Positions 2,972 through 54,702 of a stretch of DNA of 64,000 nt are shown here, piece after piece; the stretch's first letter is position 1, and each line of letters starts with the position of its first letter. The DNA is from Escherichia coli. GTDB taxonomy: Bacteria > Pseudomonadota > Gammaproteobacteria > Enterobacterales > Enterobacteriaceae. The stretch is taken from NCBI RefSeq assembly GCF_046105845.1, contig NZ_CP151004.1. The stretch is one strand, 5' to 3'. The notes below the pieces were generated by a model, which had not been told where the DNA came from, did not search any database, and saw nothing but the letters and a program-made list of their open reading frames with translations. The position numbers and the translations under genes are program-made.

Positions 2972-4060
2972 TCACGGCAGGCGGTGGCGAGCTTGATAAT
3001 AAGACTGCCAGTGAGCTTCTTTATGTGTGGCGACGCGCTGTTCGAAGTAACGGCGCAGACGCGCGCGATCTTCTTCGTTATCTTTGACGATGGTTCCGGC
3101 AATACAGTCCACCAGGTCGGCAGGCTCCCCCGCGCGATTCGCTAAAAACCAGGCGCGGACACCCACAGCATGGGCCACGTTAACGGCTTCAGCGGTGGAC
3201 ATAATCGCTGTCAGTGTATCCATTGACGTTTTCTTTTCGCCGTTGGCACGCAGATCGCGGAACGTGCGCACCAGTAATTCCAGTACCGCGTCAGGCACTT
3301 TATGCGGAATACCGCTATGGGCCAGCAAACGCGCCGAAGCACTGGCGACCAGTTCGAGCTCCTGGGCGAAATCCATAATCGGAAAGACAGTTTCAAAATC
3401 GAAGCGACGCTTTAGCGCAGCACTCATTTCATTGACGCCGCGATCGCGGGTATTGGCAGTGGCAATAATATTAAAGCCTTCCCGCGCATAGAGCTGACTG
3501 GCTTCACCAGTGAGTTCCGGCACCGTCATTACCCTGTCAGAAAGCATACCTAACAGACAGTCTTGTACTTCCAGCGGTGTACGCGTTATCTCTTCAAAAC
3601 GGACAATTTTGCCGTCGCGCATTCCCTGGTAAAGCGGGGCTGGGACCAGCGCTTCCGTTGACGGACCATGGTTGATAAGCAGGGCGTAGTTCCAGCCGTA
3701 CTTGATTTGATCTTCGGTGGTAGATGCGCCGCCCTGGATGGTTAACCCGGCATCGCCGCTAATAGCGGTTGCCAGTAATTCAGACAGGAGAGATTTTGCG
3801 GTACCCGGTTCCCCCACCAACATCAAACCGCGCCCGGTGGCAAGAGTGACTAACATACGTTCGACAGCGGAGGGACTAATCACCACTTTACGGCTAATAT
3901 TTTGCGCGCTATCGCCAAGGATAAAAGCACGGGCCGCAGGCAAACTTAACTGCCAACCGGGCGGGCAAGGTGCGTTATCATTTTGTTTTAATTTTGCCAG
4001 TTCATCGGCGTATAACACAGCAGCAGGCGGACGCTGCAGATGATTATTCTGCGGTGACAT
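2972..4060 (-). CDS. yehL: MoxR-like AAA+ ATPase (Walker A GEPGTAKS)
   Basis: ORF 2972..4126; 362-codon version starts MSPQNNHLQ at 4060; P-loop motif visible. Confidence 0.85.
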   Translation of the reverse strand: MSPQNNHLQRPPAAVLYADELAKLKQNDNAPCPPGWQLSLPAARAFILGDSAQNISRKVVISPSAVERMLVTLATGRGLMLVGEPGTAKSLLSELLATAISGDAGLTIQGGASTTEDQIKYGWNYALLINHGPSTEALVPAPLYQGMRDGKIVRFEEITRTPLEVQDCLLGMLSDRVMTVPELTGEASQLYAREGFNIIATANTRDRGVNEMSAALKRRFDFETVFPIMDFAQELELVASASARLLAHSGIPHKVPDAVLELLVRTFRDLRANGEKKTSMDTLTAIMSTAEAVNVAHAVGVRAWFLANRAGEPADLVDCIAGTIVKDNEEDRARLRRYFEQRVATHKEAHWQSYYQARHRLP

Positions 4061-4138
4061 ATATTCATCCCTGAAATGTATTAATGAAATAAACGATATT
4101 TTACGCGCAATAAATGTTTTGCGCATTAGTTGTTTGAA

Positions 4139-4628
4139 CGGAAAATATCTGGAAAGCAGATCACAGTAAATAAAAAAACCTGCTGGTGAGGCAGGTTCTT
4201 TTATTTACTATTTTCAGGCCCAACACCGCAGCCTGTGCAACATCGTGTTCCAACGAACGAATTATAACCATCGGTGGACCCCGTTGCAATTAAGATAATG
4301 AGATTTATAATCCAGACGGTTGGGACGTTGCGCCGGATCGGACCAATTTCAAGTCCTGGCTACCGGACGGGTGGTGCTGCAGGTGGTGCCCTGATCCGGA
4401 GTGCAACATCGTGGTCCAACATACGTAAACCAGTATCGACAGGCAGTGTAAGGGTAAGGTGCTGGTGTTGCGCTCCTTAATAAGGAGAGCGGATGGACAC
4501 GCAGACACAAAAGTTAACCGTGCTCATTGCTGTACTGGAGCTATTAGTGGCTCTGTTACGGTTGATTGATTTGTTGAAGTAATGGGCAAATTGAAACGCA
4601 TCTAAGGGGGAATACCGCTTCCCCCTTT
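4139..4628 (+). repeat. Type I toxin-antitoxin repeat unit 1 (zor/orz-like), about 490 bp
   Basis: Near-identical to unit 2 at 4751..5240; begins gaaaatatctggaaag, ends with hairpin aagggggaataccgcttccccctt. Confidence 0.7.
4493..4582 (+). CDS. 29-aa hydrophobic type I toxin peptide MDTQTQKLTVLIAVLELLVALLRLIDLLK (ZorO/ZorP-like)
   Basis: AGGAGA ribosome-binding site 7 nt upstream of ATG; absent from ORF track because it is under 60 aa; sequence recalled from memory as Zor-family. Confidence 0.6.
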   Translation: MDTQTQKLTVLIAVLELLVALLRLIDLLK

Positions 4629-4750
4629 AATAAAATGATTACATCTTCCATTAATTCACCTGATAACTTTTTTCTTATTTATAAATTCATCGATTTTATA
4701 ATTAACGTACCATTTCGCCGGGATGTGAATATTTATGGTGGCTATTGGCG

Positions 4751-5240
4751 AAAAATATCTGGAAAGTAGATCGCAGAAAATAAAAGAACCTGCTGGTGAG
4801 GCAGGTTCTTTTATTTACTACTTTGATGTTAAGTTACTGATAGTGCAACATGGCATCTCAACGAACGAATTATAACCACCGCTGGACCGTGTTGCAATTA
4901 AGATAATGAGATTTATAATCCTGACTGTTGGGAAGTTGCGCCGGATCGAACCCATTTCAAGTCCTGGCTACCGGACGGGTGGTGCCGCAGGTAGTGCTCT
5001 GATCCGGAGTGCAACATGGCGACTCAACATACGTAAATCAGTATCGACAGGCAGTGTAAGGGTAAGGTGCTGGTGTTGCGCTCCTTAATAAGGAGAGCGG
5101 ATGGACACGCTGACACAAAAGTTAACCGTGCTCATTGCCGTACTGGAGCTATTAGTGGCTCTGTTACGGTTGATTGATTTGTTGAAGTAATGGGCAAATT
5201 GAAACGCAACTAAGGGGGAAAACCGCTTCCCCCTTTAATA
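4751..5240 (+). repeat. Type I toxin-antitoxin repeat unit 2 (zor/orz-like)
   Basis: Tandem copy of unit 1 with scattered substitutions; terminal hairpin overlaps the 3' end of yehK. Confidence 0.7.
5101..5190 (+). CDS. 29-aa hydrophobic type I toxin peptide MDTLTQKLTVLIAVLELLVALLRLIDLLK (ZorO/ZorP-like)
   Basis: Same ribosome-binding site and frame as copy 1; one Q/L difference at residue 4. Confidence 0.6.
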   Translation: MDTLTQKLTVLIAVLELLVALLRLIDLLK

Positions 5241-5563
5241 AAGTAATATTCTATTAGTTGGTTGAATATATTCTGTAGTTTACGATTAAAAATTGCTATT
5301 ACAGTTTCAGGTGATTCACCTCGTAATTTCCGCTCATCAATACACTCATCTCTTATATAAATCAACGCATCATTTATTAGCGGGTCAGCATCTTCTCGAT
5401 CACGTTGATGAAATGTTGGACGTAGCCGGAATCGCTCCAGTCGATAGACAGAACCTGTAAATAATTCAGAGCGTTTATGGATCTCAAGCCTGAAGGAAAA
5501 CGGCTCTTCAGGTACAGGGGCCTCATAATCGTAAATAGTGATCAGCTCTTTTTGCACGATCAT
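5210..5563 (-). CDS. yehK: Small hypothetical protein; last 8 codons lie inside the repeat hairpin
   Basis: ORF 117 aa between yehI and the repeats; position matches K-12 yehK; exact start and C-terminus uncertain. Confidence 0.55.
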   Translation of the reverse strand: MIVQKELITIYDYEAPVPEEPFSFRLEIHKRSELFTGSVYRLERFRLRPTFHQRDREDADPLINDALIYIRDECIDERKLRGESPETVIAIFNRKLQNIFNQLIEYYFIKGGSGFPP

Positions 5564-5623
5564 CGCTTTTCCCGGTGGCAGGTCGTGTTAATAACGAGCA
5601 GTCGCATCACTGCCCGCTGTGTT

Positions 5624-8600
5624 TTAATGGAAAATAACGTCGGGTGCGCTTAACGCTTCACTCAAATCAAACACATCAAGTTCGGCAAAAGTGACAGATT
5701 TATTGTCACGGTATACACAAAGAGAACGGAAGCTCATTAGCGCTTTGCTATCAACATTGTAGCGGTTAAAACTGGATGAAAACTTAAGGACCAGCCGGTA
5801 CTCGCCCAGGCCATAGACAAATGCGTCCTCATAGCCTGACTCCCAGCCTTTGTATCGCATTCCCATAAGCTGCCCAACGGTAGCGGATTTACCTTCCCAG
5901 CGAGTCAGGCTGTTACTGGTTGACTCGTCAGGCGTGAGCAGCACCGTGCGGCGCGACAACTGGCGAAAAGGCGGCATAATTTCGTAATCGGCAAAAAGCT
6001 GTGCAAATTCACTGCGCATTTCTGCTGTCATTTCTAACGGGTGGGCAATGCCAATCAGAGCATCCGCAGGAAGGTCAATGGGCTCATCCTGCGCATTGCA
6101 GAACTCCCCCTCAGCGGCCACACGAAAGGCGTTGAGTAAACGACGCGGTTCATTTGCCGGATAAACACCCCATATTAATCGCTGAGTAACCAGGCGGGTA
6201 AAGGGATGATTAACAAACAGAGAACGAAAATCTGCCAGCGACCAGCGTCGGATGGTGCGCAGGGCCGTTTCAAGACGCGGGAGCAGGTTTTTGCTCACCT
6301 GAGTAGCATCTTTTTTTAGCCCTTTTAGTCGTGCCAGTGCCTCGGGCGCTTTCAGTTGATCGTCATCGGCGCGCAACCGTGGAACGCTTTTCTGGCGAAC
6401 GTTTTGCTGATCAAAGATAACCGGGTTGAGGTTTTCATCGAAGCGAACGGTAAACTGCCGGGGACCAAAATCAAAACTCAACGCCTGCGGATCATCAAGG
6501 CCCAGTGTTGGGACTAATCTGTCCGCTAACTCTTCCTGGCTTAGCCCGCGATTTTCTGCGACTACCTGAAGAAATTCCGCCGCGTTATCACGTAAGGGGC
6601 GGGATTTCGCCCGTTGCGATATATGATGCAGCTGCATCAGCGCCATATCATTATTCATCAGGGTAAGGATGTTCAGGCCACTGACAGCACGGGCAGATTT
6701 GCCTTCTTGTGGCCAGGCGAGGATCTGTGTCGTCAGATCCCGAGCCGTGCTTTCGTCACCAAAGAGACTTAACGCCAGAAATGCCCAGTTGTCTTTTGCA
6801 GGGGCACCAGCTTGTTGCCAGGCGGTGAAGAGATCCCAGGCAAAAGCTGCGAGCGTTTGTGGTTGGCAAAACGTTTTCAGTTGTTCCAGCCCGCTATAAA
6901 AACGTCCCCCCTGGGTAAAGCGCAGCATTTCGCCGATAATTTCCAGAGCGTCATCGGTAACAGGTTGATTATTAGTGATAAGGCGCGGCCTGGACCACAT
7001 TTGCGGATGCCAGAAATCAGGGGCTTTTGGCATGCGCGCCGGGTAAATTTCCAGCGGGTTCTGGGTAAGTATTTTTTCCAGGGCTGGCCACACATCAGCA
7101 CGATCCCAGCGGTTTGCCACGGTTTGTAGTAATTCGCCATGTCCCTGTTCGTAAAGTAAACGCAGGGCAAATAATGCAGCTTCGCTATTATCGCTGGATT
7201 TAATGAAGACAAGAGGGATAAGTGCAGTAGCCGTATGTTCCGGCCATTGTAAAATCCACTGGCGGGCCAGATCACGCTGCGCCGCGAAACGTCGCCAGAC
7301 GCGGGCAACGGGCAGGGCCAGTTCGGTTGCGCCGAAATTTAAAATTAACGGAAATGTTTCTTTTGGACGATGTGAAAAAGCCAACAGCAGACCTGGTAGA
7401 GCATCCAATCCGAAGATACTGAGAAAATAGTCCTCACCCGCAGACAGATGCTTTTTCTCATTGATACGTAGCCAGAAAGTCAAAGCCATCTCACGCGGCA
7501 ACTGCGCCAATAAATACAGGTTCCAGATACTCTTTTCCCGACGATAGCGTGAGTAGCTGTCATTTTCCCATATGTTAATTAACACTTCTACGTGACCGCT
7601 GCGAAGCGCCTGTTCTGCTAATTGAGCTTCCGGGGAGCTCCAGCCATTCATGATCTCTTCAACCCGCCCTGGGTAGTAATGCCACTGAACAATGAGTGAA
7701 TTGCGTGCAGCATCCAGTTTTCCGGGGAGTATATAATTCAAAAACAGCCATACATCATCTCCAAAACCCAGCTCCTGTAGTACAACTCGTCCACTTTTAT
7801 GTTCCATGCGTTCCGCAAGAGATTCCGTGCTGAAATAACGGGCAGACTCAGTGGCGGCAAGCCTCTCTCGTTCGCCTGGTTGCCAGTAAACTTGCGGCGT
7901 TAATTCGAACGGTGCCAAATCAAGACGTGGAACTGTCATTTTTTTCTTACTACGCCACGGTGGTGAAACGAGGATTTCAGGCAGATTGCTGTTATCGGTG
8001 CCATCAATAACCGGTTTGGGCGGTGCCGATAAATAACTATTCAGCACTGCCCGGGCTTGAGTACTTAACCACGGCATCACTTCTGCTGCCAGTTGTGGCT
8101 GCGATGCCATCAGCGTTTGTAACAGTGTACGCCAGTATTCATCTCGAGCTTTTTGCTGTGCAGGCAGCTTTTTGTCTTCGATGATTGGATAACCAGGGCG
8201 CGCAGGTGGTTCTTTTAGCGCCAGAAGCTCTGCCAGTGCGGCAAGCGTCGCATGGGGGAAATTTTTACTGTATTTAGCTACACGTTGCAGGCTGGGTTTG
8301 TTTTTATCAGCAACTAACAGCAGGGTGCGGATGACCTGCGGATGGTTAATTTGTACCAGCAGACTGCCGCAATCTTCTTTATGGGCATACATTGCCAGGC
8401 GTGGAACGGCTGCCAGTCCTTGTTCGCGCAAAAGGGCAGCGCAGGCCGCGTAGCCGAAGTGGTTTTCATGCGACATGTAGCTGGCTTCCCGATCGCTAAA
8501 TATATCCTGGCTCCAGTAGCGTTCGAGTTTTTTCACCGCTCTGGGGTCATTAGCAACAACTTTTAACCACTCCTTAGAATGAAAATGAGTCCGCGGGCAT

Positions 8601-9256
8601 TCAAGGTCTACCAACTCATTGGCGATTTCTGGTTTTTCCGGGAGGATCAGCGCAATAAAAGGGCGGCGAACTTTGGTTATTCCTGGCAGTGCGGCAATGA
8701 GTTTGTCGGCGCAACGCTGCCAGCTGCTTTCCTCTGCCAGAGAGAGATGCTTACGCAGTCGGAGATCGAATTCGTTATAGGTTTCTGAGCGATAACCATA
8801 GCCATAATCCTCGTCCTGATACTGCAATGTCACTAGCAGAGGATCACTTTCATAACACCGTGCAATAAACTGGCGTGCAATCACCACCTCAGTCGCATAT
8901 TCCAGTCCCTCTTGTTGGACGATTTCGTCGAGCAACTGTTGGCTATCATTTTGCGCGATACAGGCTAGCGCCGCCATTGTCCGGGCCGGAACTGAGGGTT
9001 TGTGTTCTCCGATCAAGTTGATGGCCTGCGTAATGGCCGACTGCCACTCCAGTGAAAAATTTTCATAACGCCAGACAATGTTTTTTTTCTTCTCAGCTTT
9101 TTGTAGCAATTCATCACCCAGTGTCTGGATGAGGCTTTCAGTGATAACAGGCACTGGTTCGCCCGGCCAACTGCGATGGCTGAGCGGCGTTTTGCCTTTT
9201 TTATATTTCAGTTCCACTTGGGCGTTATCCGCCAGCCACGGTAATTCCTTGTCCAT
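5624..9256 (-). CDS. yehI: 1210-aa uncharacterized protein, paralog of MolR (DUF4132-type C-terminal region)
   Basis: Single long ORF; strong similarity to the adjacent molR reading frame. Confidence 0.85.
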   Translation of the reverse strand: MDKELPWLADNAQVELKYKKGKTPLSHRSWPGEPVPVITESLIQTLGDELLQKAEKKKNIVWRYENFSLEWQSAITQAINLIGEHKPSVPARTMAALACIAQNDSQQLLDEIVQQEGLEYATEVVIARQFIARCYESDPLLVTLQYQDEDYGYGYRSETYNEFDLRLRKHLSLAEESSWQRCADKLIAALPGITKVRRPFIALILPEKPEIANELVDLECPRTHFHSKEWLKVVANDPRAVKKLERYWSQDIFSDREASYMSHENHFGYAACAALLREQGLAAVPRLAMYAHKEDCGSLLVQINHPQVIRTLLLVADKNKPSLQRVAKYSKNFPHATLAALAELLALKEPPARPGYPIIEDKKLPAQQKARDEYWRTLLQTLMASQPQLAAEVMPWLSTQARAVLNSYLSAPPKPVIDGTDNSNLPEILVSPPWRSKKKMTVPRLDLAPFELTPQVYWQPGERERLAATESARYFSTESLAERMEHKSGRVVLQELGFGDDVWLFLNYILPGKLDAARNSLIVQWHYYPGRVEEIMNGWSSPEAQLAEQALRSGHVEVLINIWENDSYSRYRREKSIWNLYLLAQLPREMALTFWLRINEKKHLSAGEDYFLSIFGLDALPGLLLAFSHRPKETFPLILNFGATELALPVARVWRRFAAQRDLARQWILQWPEHTATALIPLVFIKSSDNSEAALFALRLLYEQGHGELLQTVANRWDRADVWPALEKILTQNPLEIYPARMPKAPDFWHPQMWSRPRLITNNQPVTDDALEIIGEMLRFTQGGRFYSGLEQLKTFCQPQTLAAFAWDLFTAWQQAGAPAKDNWAFLALSLFGDESTARDLTTQILAWPQEGKSARAVSGLNILTLMNNDMALMQLHHISQRAKSRPLRDNAAEFLQVVAENRGLSQEELADRLVPTLGLDDPQALSFDFGPRQFTVRFDENLNPVIFDQQNVRQKSVPRLRADDDQLKAPEALARLKGLKKDATQVSKNLLPRLETALRTIRRWSLADFRSLFVNHPFTRLVTQRLIWGVYPANEPRRLLNAFRVAAEGEFCNAQDEPIDLPADALIGIAHPLEMTAEMRSEFAQLFADYEIMPPFRQLSRRTVLLTPDESTSNSLTRWEGKSATVGQLMGMRYKGWESGYEDAFVYGLGEYRLVLKFSSSFNRYNVDSKALMSFRSLCVYRDNKSVTFAELDVFDLSEALSAPDVIFH

Positions 9257-24039: not shown

Positions 24040-24176
24040 TCGCAACCAAACGACTCGGGGTGCCCTTCTGCGTGAAGGCTGAGAAATACCCGTATCACCT
24101 GATCTGGATAATGCCAGCGTAGGGAAGTCACGGACCACCAGGTCATTGCTTCTTCACGTTATGGCAGGAGCAAACT
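24040..24176 (+). ncRNA. TPP (thi-box) riboswitch in the thiM leader
   Basis: Contains ctggggtgcccttctgcgtgaaggctgagaaatacccgtatcacctgatctggataatgccagcgtaggga immediately upstream of thiM. Confidence 0.9.
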
Positions 24177-40312: not shown

Positions 40313-40339
40313 AAAAAATAAGCCCGTGTAAGGGAGATT
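40313..40339. other. Bacteriophage P2 attachment core sequence (unoccupied att site)
   Basis: Exact match to the 27-nt core aaaaaataagcccgtgtaagggagatt as recalled; no flanking prophage genes. Confidence 0.6.
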
Positions 40340-40483
40340 ACACAGGCTAAGGAGGTGGTTCCTGGTACAGCTAGCATTTTATGGGTTATGTTTTTCAGCG
40401 AAACGGATGATAACCTTAATAAATGCAGCTGTATGTGATCGGTTTCTAAGAATTTTCCATCCGGGAAAAATAATCGAAATTAA

Positions 40484-53689: not shown

Positions 53690-53850
53690 TAAGCCGATGA
53701 TTTCAGCGGGACGCTGAAACGGGAAAGCCCCTCCCGAGGAAGGGGCCATAAATAAGGAAAGGGTCATGATGAAGCTACTCATCATCGTGGTGCTCTTAGT
53801 CATTAGCTGGCCAGCTTACTAAGACTACCAGGGCGGGGGAAACCCCGCTC
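53690..53850 (-). ncRNA. Sib-type antisense sRNA antitoxin, copy 1 (approximate ends)
   Basis: Inferred from known ibs/sib architecture; hairpins flank the ibs ORF. Confidence 0.45.
53766..53822 (+). CDS. Ibs-family toxin peptide MMKLLIIVVLLVISWPAY
   Basis: 18-aa hydrophobic ORF with AGGAAAGGG ribosome-binding site; not in ORF track. Confidence 0.75.
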   Translation: MMKLLIIVVLLVISWPAY

Positions 53851-54019
53851 TACCCTCACTCCTGAAAGTATGCCTTCACGATAAGATTGTCAATCTGCAG
53901 GCTTTGCAGTCTGCGATCCTGCCAGCAAATATTCTTTGCGAGACGTTACGCAATAATCACACTGGAAACTATTTTATCCGCAAGTCAGCGATAGACTGCA
54001 TTCAGGGCGAAAGGAGGTA

Positions 54020-54180
54020 AGCCGACGATTTCAGCGGGACGCTGAAACGGGAAAGCCCCTCCCGAGGAAGGGGCCTTAAATAAGGAAAGGGTCATGATGA
54101 AGATACTCATCATCGTGGTGCTCTTAGTGATTAGCTACCCAGCATACTAAGACTACCAGGGCGGGGGAAACCCCGCTCTA
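54020..54180 (-). ncRNA. Sib-type antisense sRNA antitoxin, copy 2 (approximate ends)
   Basis: Inferred from repeat architecture. Confidence 0.45.
54094..54150 (+). CDS. Ibs-family toxin peptide MMKILIIVVLLVISYPAY
   Basis: Second repeat unit, same architecture. Confidence 0.75.
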   Translation: MMKILIIVVLLVISYPAY

Positions 54181-54349
54181 CCCTCACTCCTGAAATTATG
54201 CCTTCACGATAAGATTGTCAATCCGCAGGCTTTGCAGTCTGCGATCCTGCCAGCAAATATTCTTTGCGAGTCGTTACGCAATAATCACAGAGGAAACTAT
54301 TTTATTCACGCGTTAGCGATAGACTGCATTCAGGGCGAAAGGAGGTAAG

Positions 54350-54510
54350 CCGACGATTTCAGCGGGACGCTGAAACGGGAAACCCTCTCCCGGAGAAGAG
54401 GGCTTTTAATAAGGAAAGGGTTATGATGAAGCACGTCATCATACTGGTGATACTCTTAGTGATTAGCTTCCAGGCTTACTAAGAACACCAGGGGGAGGGG
54501 GAAACCTCTC
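54350..54510 (-). ncRNA. Sib-type antisense sRNA antitoxin, copy 3 (approximate ends)
   Basis: Inferred from repeat architecture. Confidence 0.45.
54423..54482 (+). CDS. ibsA: Ibs-family toxin peptide MMKHVIILVILLVISFQAY
   Basis: Third repeat unit; peptide matches recalled K-12 IbsA. Confidence 0.75.
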   Translation: MMKHVIILVILLVISFQAY

Positions 54511-54702
54511 CCTAACCCTCACTCCTGAAATTATGTCACTCCGCCCTTAGTGTCAATCGACGGCTCTCCGTTCTTGCGAGGCGAATAGCAAAATTTTCTG
54601 CGCCGCCGGGCCTAATTCTGAAAGTTTCTTCGTTTGCTCTTATTTCATTATTGCAATCGGTATGATACCGGACCTCGATAATTCTCTAAGAAAGGATTTC
54701 TT

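Follow-up and report, generated by a model that had tools for sequence, protein, structure and literature searches.

What is encoded between yehK and yehL in the Escherichia coli chromosome analyzed here, and are the two similar units of DNA that stand in tandem at this site both complete? The window is the whole stretch of 64,000 nucleotides that was analyzed; standard annotation marks neither of the two toxins described below and neither of their antitoxin RNAs. A sequence-only reading had proposed that the two units form a tandem ZorO/OrzO-type toxin-antitoxin module that annotation had overlooked. Using comparisons with Rfam, with a collection of 15 billion proteins, and with 5426 complete E. 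coli genomes, we find that this is almost certainly the zor-orz type I toxin-antitoxin locus known from the Escherichia chromosome, here made up of two pairs in tandem. [quoted passage not shown] The proposal has therefore stood, in that the Rfam matches, the identity to ZorO, the map register, and the corresponding site in E. coli O157:H7 Sakai all agree.

The zor-orz locus was reportedly predicted by Fozo in 2010. It was first described in EDL933 as z3289/z3290, and a 2014 study (Wen, PMC3919570) proved that it encodes a toxin and its antitoxin; its mechanism was dissected from 2017 to 2022 (Wen 2017, PMC5397157), and a BLASTn survey of >2000 genomes appeared in 2024 (PMC11264685). The locus itself is already known, and what is new here consists only of allelic details, i.e., a ZorO-L4Q toxin and a stop-loss YehK, and of small evolutionary notes.

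RESULTS

Two tandem units lie between yehL and yehK

Unit 1 (4139..4632; 494 bp) adjoins yehL, and unit 2 (4749..5240; 492 bp) adjoins yehK. Each comprises a complete zor/orz pair, that of unit 1 being of the zorP/orzP type and that of unit 2 of a third specificity type. In a global alignment, the two units are 90.3% identical with two gap columns, and the zor open reading frame (ORF) is the best-conserved segment between them (97.8% identity versus 93.1% for the leader). A repeat finder returned two repeat families, one of 300 nt (4235-4534 and 4843-5142; 92% identical; spacing 608 bp) and one of 76 nt (4139-4214 and 4749-4824; 92% identical; spacing 610 bp). Thus, the unit length of ~490 bp given in the sequence-only reading was correct, but the spacing of ~612 bp has to be adjusted to 608-610 bp.

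The left neighbor of the locus is yehL (2972..4060, minus strand), which encodes a MoxR-type AAA+ ATPase; it was taken from the ORF list and has annotated homologues in PCN033, K-12, and Sakai. On the other side, yehK (5210..5563, minus strand; 117 aa) was delimited using the ORF list, the alignment, and translations. The spacer between the two units (4628..4716) is probably a relic of the yehK 3′ end, i.e., a decayed copy of it: in a local alignment with 5287-5376, it reached a score of 35 (shuffle mean ~18, SD 2.1-2.5), and the same signal was also detected, although more weakly, in Sakai (score 30) and PCN033 (score 28). If the spacer is such a copy, this would mean that the duplication of the unit arose in situ.

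Both units contain a candidate orz gene divergent from zor

Scanning positions 3900-5700 with Rfam, we found that both units match RF02083 (OrzO-P) on the minus strand over the full length of the model, unit 1 at 4172-4247 (101.3 bits; E = 3.6e-17) and unit 2 at 4782-4855 (90.2 bits; E = 7.3e-15), the gathering score of this family being 60. A scan of the whole window repeated both matches. With these E-values for the two orz genes, the repeats are not due to chance. The other Rfam matches (Thr and Trp leaders, STnc370, ncr1015, RUF4, and rliD) all scored below their gathering scores, lay on the Orz terminator, and were rejected.

We place the orz genes on the minus strand at 4172..4254 in unit 1 (OrzP type; ~83 nt; 5′ end GUUGGAACACGAUGUUGCAC), where the 3′ end is formed by a terminator hairpin and a U-run, and at 4782..4862 in unit 2 (~81 nt; 5′ end GUUGAGAUGCCAUGUUGCACU). 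Both Orz RNAs have a 12-pair terminator stem in the predicted fold, and the fold of the unit-2 Orz has a z-score of −4.56. The putative 5′ ends at 4254 and 4862 derive from the spacing to the −10 hexamers and from the published 18-nt pairing of OrzO, of which the first 18 nt pair with zorO (PMC3919570). Consistently, if Sakai OrzO is started at the equivalent G, a pairing run of exactly 18 nt results.

A promoter scan identified four promoters, and in each unit, a single palindromic −35 hexamer, TTGCAA, is common to zor on the plus strand and orz on the minus strand. In the divergent promoter block of unit 1 (4261..4311), the orz −10 TATAAT is located at 4266-4261 (minus strand), the −35 TTGCAA at 4284-4289, and the zor −10 TATAAT at 4306-4311 (plus strand); in that of unit 2 (4869..4919), the orz −10 is located at 4874-4869 (minus strand), the −35 TTGCAA at 4892-4897, and the zor −10 at 4914-4919. 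The zor and orz genes of EDL933 have a −35 TTGCAA and a −10 TATAAT, together with the RBS AAGGAG and a 29-aa ORF (PMC11264685, Table 3), and the promoter hexamers found here are the published ones. In both units, orz is divergent from zor, and the two genes do not overlap. The sequence-only reading had envisaged a short antisense RNA overlapping the 5′ UTR; this is not the arrangement found, in which Orz would be made divergently from upstream and its first ~20 nt are complementary to the leader.

Both units encode a ZorO-type peptide

As the sequence-only reading had described, each unit has a plus-strand ORF for a 29-aa peptide behind a long 5′ UTR (174 nt) and an RBS (AAGGAG), and its suggestion that the peptide would match ZorO in a database was confirmed for unit 2. 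The unit-2 zor ORF (5101..5190) encodes the peptide MDTLTQKLTVLIAVLELLVALLRLIDLLK, which has exactly the sequence of E. coli O157:H7 ZorO: a look-up in the collection of 15 billion proteins gave an exact match to "Small toxic protein ZorO, ZORO_ECO57," and the peptide is letter for letter the synthetic ZorO peptide used previously (PMC6669753). The unit-1 zor ORF (4493..4582) encodes the peptide MDTQTQKLTVLIAVLELLVALLRLIDLLK, which differs from ZorO by a single change, L4Q. The ALLRL motif (residues 20-24) is intact in both units.

The L4Q peptide had no exact match in the same protein collection; since genes of 29 codons are seldom called, this absence is weak evidence, and the 5426 complete E. 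coli genomes were therefore also searched with a 53-mer across the CAG codon of L4Q, which gave 0 matches. Scanning both Zor peptides against NCBIfam, we found no family, and NCBIfam holds no model for this peptide. The N-terminal 13 residues of ZorO are dispensable for toxicity, while ALLRL is required (PMC6669753). Because L4Q lies within the dispensable N-terminal residues and ALLRL is intact, the unit-1 toxin ZorO-L4Q is expected, by analogy with ZorO, to be active.

The zor leaders have the published layout

We infer the transcription starts of zor and orz from promoter spacing and from the mapping in EDL933. The zor +1 was set 174 nt before the ATG, i.e., at G4319 in unit 1 and G4927 in unit 2, which is 7 nt after TATAAT, and the resulting plus-strand leaders extend over 4319..4492 and 4927..5100. 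With +1 placed in this way, AAGGAG lies at exactly +164 to +169 in both units (4482-4487 and 5090-5095), 5 nt upstream of the ATG, and the EAP region (+73 to +102; 4391-4420 and 4999-5028) holds GGAGTG in both units. The candidate Orz pairing sites are located at 4401-4420 and 5008-5028. The published zor leader has a length of 174 nt, with the RBS at +164 to +169 and the EAP at +73 to +102 (PMC5397157). On the plus strand, terminator hairpins are located at 4604..4627 in unit 1, as an arm of the repeat pair with its stem seen in the fold, and at 5212..5235 in unit 2, where the minus strand resembles a terminator too and contributes the final eight codons of yehK. From +1 to the terminator, the zor transcript is predicted to be ~310 nt long, and zorO transcripts of ~310 and ~280 nt have been reported on northern blots (PMC3919570).

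In the minimum free energy (MFE) folds of both full-length mRNAs, the RBS is part of a six-pair hairpin (CUCCUU, loop AAU, AAGGAG), and in the unit-1 mRNA, the first 7 nt are paired with +96 to +102. This predicted fold of the full-length unit-1 mRNA fits the published model, in which the removal of 28 nt opens the EAP. The MFE folds of the processed leaders were no better than those of shuffled sequences (z-scores of −0.4 and −0.8), and the "open EAP" state is therefore without support from the folds.

Each Orz is predicted to pair with its own zor leader

Pairing between Orz and the zor leaders was compared with the register fixed at +102 and over the published pairing segment only; this comparison replaced whole-length RNAduplex predictions of Orz against the UTR, which returned long, meaningless duplexes. 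The unit-1 Orz and the unit-1 zor leader form 6 pairs, 1 mismatch, and 13 pairs, or 6(1)13, covering 19 of the 20 positions from +83 to +102, and the unit-2 Orz and the unit-2 zor leader form 6(1)14 with one G-U, covering 20 of the 21 positions from +82 to +102. By comparison, either Orz forms only 9-10 contiguous bp with the leader of the other unit, with at least 3 mismatches. Experiments have set the minimum for pairing at 15 contiguous nt or, where there is one internal mismatch, at 17 nt (PMC11264685, PMC3919570); by this rule, both cognate pairs pass and both cross pairs fail. Because the pairing segments differ between the units, with matched changes in the RNA and its target, each Orz should control only its own zor.

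In unit 1, the V1 triplet, as defined previously (PMC3919570), is that of OrzP, ACG; unit 2 has GCC, and EDL933 OrzO has GAA. The pairing-region sequences of unit 1 are identical to those of Sakai unit 1 (zorP/orzP) and of the orphan orz of K-12. Because unit 1 has both the V1 triplet of OrzP and the pairing segment of Sakai unit 1, we assign it to the zorP/orzP type. Unit 2 is 99.6% identical to its counterpart in PCN033 and 98.8% identical to a unit of the O45:H2 strain FWSEC0003, the toxin of which has A20S. This substitution is the hallmark of ZorQ, and the zorQ/orzQ type has been defined by a BLASTn bit score of >650 to a reference query (PMC11264685). The unit-2 toxin keeps A20 and with it the protein sequence of ZorO. 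We suggest that unit 2 probably belongs to the published zorQ/orzQ class, an assignment made by way of the A20S-bearing relative in FWSEC0003 and not by way of the reference zorQ/orzQ sequence.

The locus is common in E. coli and extends to other Escherichia species

In 5231 of the 5426 complete E. coli genomes, unit 2 was matched at least in part. A full unit occurred one or more times in 3393 of the 5426 genomes (62.5%), the orz part only in ~34%, and nothing in 3.6%; ~859 genomes had a unit that shared 95% or more identity with unit 2. The genomes that have no full unit mostly keep only the first ~210 bp, i.e., the orz-only state. These copy-number counts agree with the published survey, in which 67% of the genomes had a full pair, 30% orz only, and 3% neither (PMC11264685). 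In K-12 MG1655, the orz gene is intact (99.9 bits) and followed by ~30 nt of the zor leader, after which the sequence jumps to just before the yehK stop codon; this orphan orz has been named OrzPmg and is expressed (PMC11264685). The statement in the sequence-only reading that the locus is absent from K-12 is thus correct for the toxin but not for the antitoxin, since K-12 has kept orz and the beginning of the leader.

In O157:H7 Sakai, the 1240-bp gap between ECs_2926 (yehK) and ECs_2927 (yehL), in which RefSeq has no feature, aligns end to end with the locus in the window and encodes MDSLTQ... (ZorP, T3S) and MDTLTQ... (ZorO). None of the RefSeq records examined has a zor or orz annotation. 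Among the complete E. coli genomes, PCN033 is the best match to the locus (97.7%). Elsewhere in the window, a 6-kb piece from the gat region has a best complete-genome match of 98.9%.

Outside E. coli, positions 3000-9000 of the window are 87-89% identical over most of their length to E. whittamii and two other Escherichia species, the E. coli strains being 95-97% identical; over the first 1.6 kb, identity rises to ~93-94% in the two species other than E. whittamii. A source of the window in another Escherichia species was therefore rejected; it comes from a lineage at the level of E. coli that the set of complete genomes lacks. Other Escherichia species have the locus as well, E. whittamii with two units at the yehL site. 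The Zor reading frame is preserved in E. whittamii and in the two other species.

The yehK reading frame extends into the unit-2 zor terminator

The 117-aa yehK ORF ends inside the terminator hairpin of unit 2 (5212-5235), and this hairpin, on its opposite strand, provides the final eight codons (KGGSGFPP). The ORF is 11 codons longer than the 106-aa allele, the additional codons extending into the zor terminator; the allele in K-12 and Sakai has 105 aa. The sequence-only reading had recognized the origin of these eight codons, which is correct, and had gone on to suggest that the acquisition of the module remodelled the yehK 3′ end. According to this idea, the insertion of the module rewrote the end of yehK, and the longer YehK would have arisen through the gain of a toxin module. 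The spacer between the units, which looks as if the yehK 3′ end had once been copied there, would add to the shared hairpin in pointing to a common rearrangement history of the module and yehK; however, we consider this scenario very unlikely in the light of other strains. Sakai has the module together with an ordinary 105-aa YehK, and its terminator is separated from the stop region by 54 bp that are lacking in the window. The yehK stop is the same in K-12, where the remnant goes back to a locus of this kind. FWSEC0003 has the short junction, yet its YehK ends with TAG at 106 aa, and the window differs by the single change to TAC at that codon. The exact junction of the window, represented by a junction-spanning 81-mer that includes TAC, was found in only 123 of the 5426 genomes, while the short junction, taken as at least 80% coverage of the 81-mer, was found in 712. 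Finally, the junction with TAC is also that of PCN033, in which yehK is a pseudogene. The comparison of these alleles indicates that the extension of YehK is the result of an indel of 54 bp at the junction and a TAG>TAC stop loss in a minority lineage, and not of the acquisition of the module.

DISCUSSION

Having identified the locus as very likely a tandem zor-orz locus, we considered whether the units could nevertheless be without function as toxin-antitoxin pairs. It seems to us most improbable that one or both units are decaying relics, i.e., silent toxin pseudogenes kept as repeats in the manner of the orz-only remnant in K-12. Decay of this kind would be in line with the approximately one-third of E. 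coli genomes that have no toxin part and with the occurrence of the unit-1 L4Q change in no other complete genome; however, the promoters, the RBS, the 29-codon frame, ALLRL, the terminators, and cognate pairing above the threshold are intact in both units, the ORFs are the segment best conserved between the units (97.8%), and L4Q affects the N-terminal segment of 13 residues that toxicity does not require. Even smaller, and close to negligible, is the probability that the units are a repeated intergenic element working as RNA only, in which the short hydrophobic ORFs arose by chance. While ORFs of just 29 codons that are uncalled in RefSeq might suggest as much, a chance frame is difficult to reconcile with a peptide identical to a protein that has been found experimentally to be toxic and membrane localized (PMC6669753), with an ORF that is more conserved between the units than the leader (97.8% versus 93.1%), and with a frame that is kept in three further Escherichia species, E. 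whittamii among them. We therefore retain the reading that the locus comprises two complete zor-orz pairs.

For these pairs, we infer that the mechanism described in EDL933, comprising expression, processing, and toxicity, holds in the present strain. According to this model, a σ70 promoter would give rise to a ~310-nt zor mRNA. In its 174-nt leader, the Shine-Dalgarno sequence would be hidden in a hairpin, and in the full-length mRNA, the 5′ end would also cover the EAP at +73 to +102. Removal of the first 28 nt would expose the EAP, which would serve as a ribosome standby site from which the 29-residue inner-membrane peptide could be made, and the Zor peptide would then depolarize the membrane. 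On the opposite strand, a promoter with the same palindromic −35 hexamer would produce an Orz RNA of ~80 nt, and Orz would bind the 3′ part of the EAP through its first ~20 nt, by which standby ribosomes would be blocked and the mRNA would be cleaved by RNase III, keeping the toxin off. The toxicity, the 5′ processing, the standby role, and the dependence on RNase III, with Hfq not being needed, come from experiments in EDL933 (PMC3919570, PMC5397157); growth arrest on overproduction of the toxin and the RNase III-dependent rescue by the cognate Orz refer to EDL933 zorO-orzO only (PMC3919570). The sequence analyzed here itself shows every signal and where it lies, the hairpins predicted by folding, the patterns of pairing, the identity to ZorO, and the genomic site.

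The locus has in common with zorO-orzO/zorP-orzP of EDL933 and Sakai the yehK-yehL site, the tandem layout, the promoter hexamers, the 174-nt leader, the position of the RBS, the EAP motif, and the terminators. Moreover, the 5′ end of the unit-1 Orz and its target are those of Sakai zorP/orzP, and the unit-2 toxin is ZorO. It differs from these loci in that the unit-1 toxin is ZorO-L4Q rather than ZorP (T3S) and in that the yehK junction is 54 bp shorter; in addition, unit 2 has its own pairing segment and the V1 triplet GCC, whereas the orzO type in EDL933 has GAA. In the case of zorQ/orzQ, unit 2 is close (98.8%) to the FWSEC0003 unit that encodes A20S, but its own toxin retains A20. Altogether, the two units provide a worked example of how neighboring copies may avoid cross-talk by means of matched changes in a 20-nt pairing segment. 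The small evolutionary notes that can be added concern the presence of the locus in other Escherichia species, the spacer that is probably a yehK relic, and the stop loss into the terminator in a minority lineage.

We also considered whether the combination of alleles, i.e., a P-type unit with ZorO-L4Q, a unit of a third specificity, and a yehK frame that runs through the zor terminator, has a functional consequence, and we think that there is only a very slight chance of this. If it had, ribosomes on the extended yehK might, for example, melt the common hairpin and alter the formation or stability of the zor mRNA 3′ end, and the level of toxin would be coupled to the expression of yehI-yehK.

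With respect to other type I systems, the shoB-ohsC pair is similar in its divergent arrangement and its short 5′ pairing. Membership in this family was rejected: the unit-2 Orz scored 35.4 bits against the Rfam ohsC gathering score of 50, most of it from the terminator, and the toxin and the leader differ. The tisB-istR1 pair has no sequence relationship to zor-orz; moreover, zor is without a known LexA/SOS control signal, and the full-length zor mRNA is weakly translatable, in contrast to the tisB +1 mRNA. In other respects, the two systems are alike, and this comparison has been made previously (PMC5397157): in both, a divergent small RNA pairs far upstream of a sequestered RBS, the translatable mRNA is generated by 5′ processing, the standby site is the target of the antitoxin, and the toxin is a 29-aa peptide that depolarizes the membrane.

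Results and Discussion

According to Wen et al. (2014; PMC3919570), zor-orz is confined to E. coli and Shigella. Among species representatives, we found Zor ORFs accompanied by the full promoter, EAP (the zor leader region whose 3' part is targeted by the Orz 5' end) and Orz signals in three non-coli Escherichia species, i.e., Escherichia whittamii, Escherichia sp. E1V33 and Escherichia sp. MOD1-EC7003. Contrary to the 2014 paper, the range of zor-orz therefore extends beyond E. coli and Shigella. The E. whittamii locus can be aligned to the yehL-to-yehI region of the window and comprises two units, of which one is P-type, with the toxin variant Q6R, and the other O-type. Because both the tandem arrangement and the two pairing specificities are present in E. 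whittamii, we suggest that the duplication and the P/O types are both old.

As for how the two copies arose, the spacer between the units (4628-4716) matches the 3' part of yehK (5287-5376) with a local alignment score of 35, compared with a mean of ∼18 (standard deviation, 2.1 to 2.5) for shuffled sequences; in other strains, the corresponding scores are lower (30 in O157:H7 Sakai and 28 in PCN033). Read on the minus strand, the same spacer contains a decayed YehK-like frame. Together, these two observations suggest that the tandem duplication arose in situ and included the end of yehK. The yeh genes beside zor-orz are themselves in decay in some lineages: in PCN033, the annotation marks yehK as a pseudogene because of an internal stop (4132-4485 of locus L001), and yehM of Sakai is a pseudogene (5505-7784 of locus L003).

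Within unit 1, the zor mRNA begins almost identically to the Orz RNA (GUUGGGAC at 4319-4327 and GUUGGAAC at 4254-4246 on the minus strand, respectively), a pattern repeated in unit 2, and the two promoters form an imperfect inverted repeat centered on the palindromic −35 element. Moreover, in the predicted fold of unit 1, the 5' end of the zor mRNA pairs with UCCAAC (+97 to +102), which is also the target of the 5' end of Orz. Based on these similarities, the trans-acting antitoxin and the cis-inhibitory end of the zor leader look like mirror copies of one another.

The unit 1 toxin carries CAG at 4502-4504 and is, thus, ZorO-L4Q. This exact peptide had no match in a collection of 15 billion proteins, and a 53-mer spanning the codon had no match among 5426 complete E. 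coli genomes.

The window also contains a second type I toxin-antitoxin family. On the minus strand, three Sib antitoxin RNAs lie in tandem (53751-54556; Rfam RF00113; 140 to 150 bits), each faced on the plus strand by an Ibs-like hydrophobic ORF of 18 to 19 codons (MMKLLIIVVLLVISWPAY, MMKILIIVVLLVISYPAY, and MMKHVIILVILLVISFQAY). Because K-12 has two pairs at this locus (ibsA/sibA and ibsB/sibB), the three-pair array may be a copy number variant. The CyaR/RyeE sRNA (40316-40401, minus strand; 100.7 bits) and the TPP riboswitch (24046-24142, plus strand; 71.2 bits) are already known, ordinary features.
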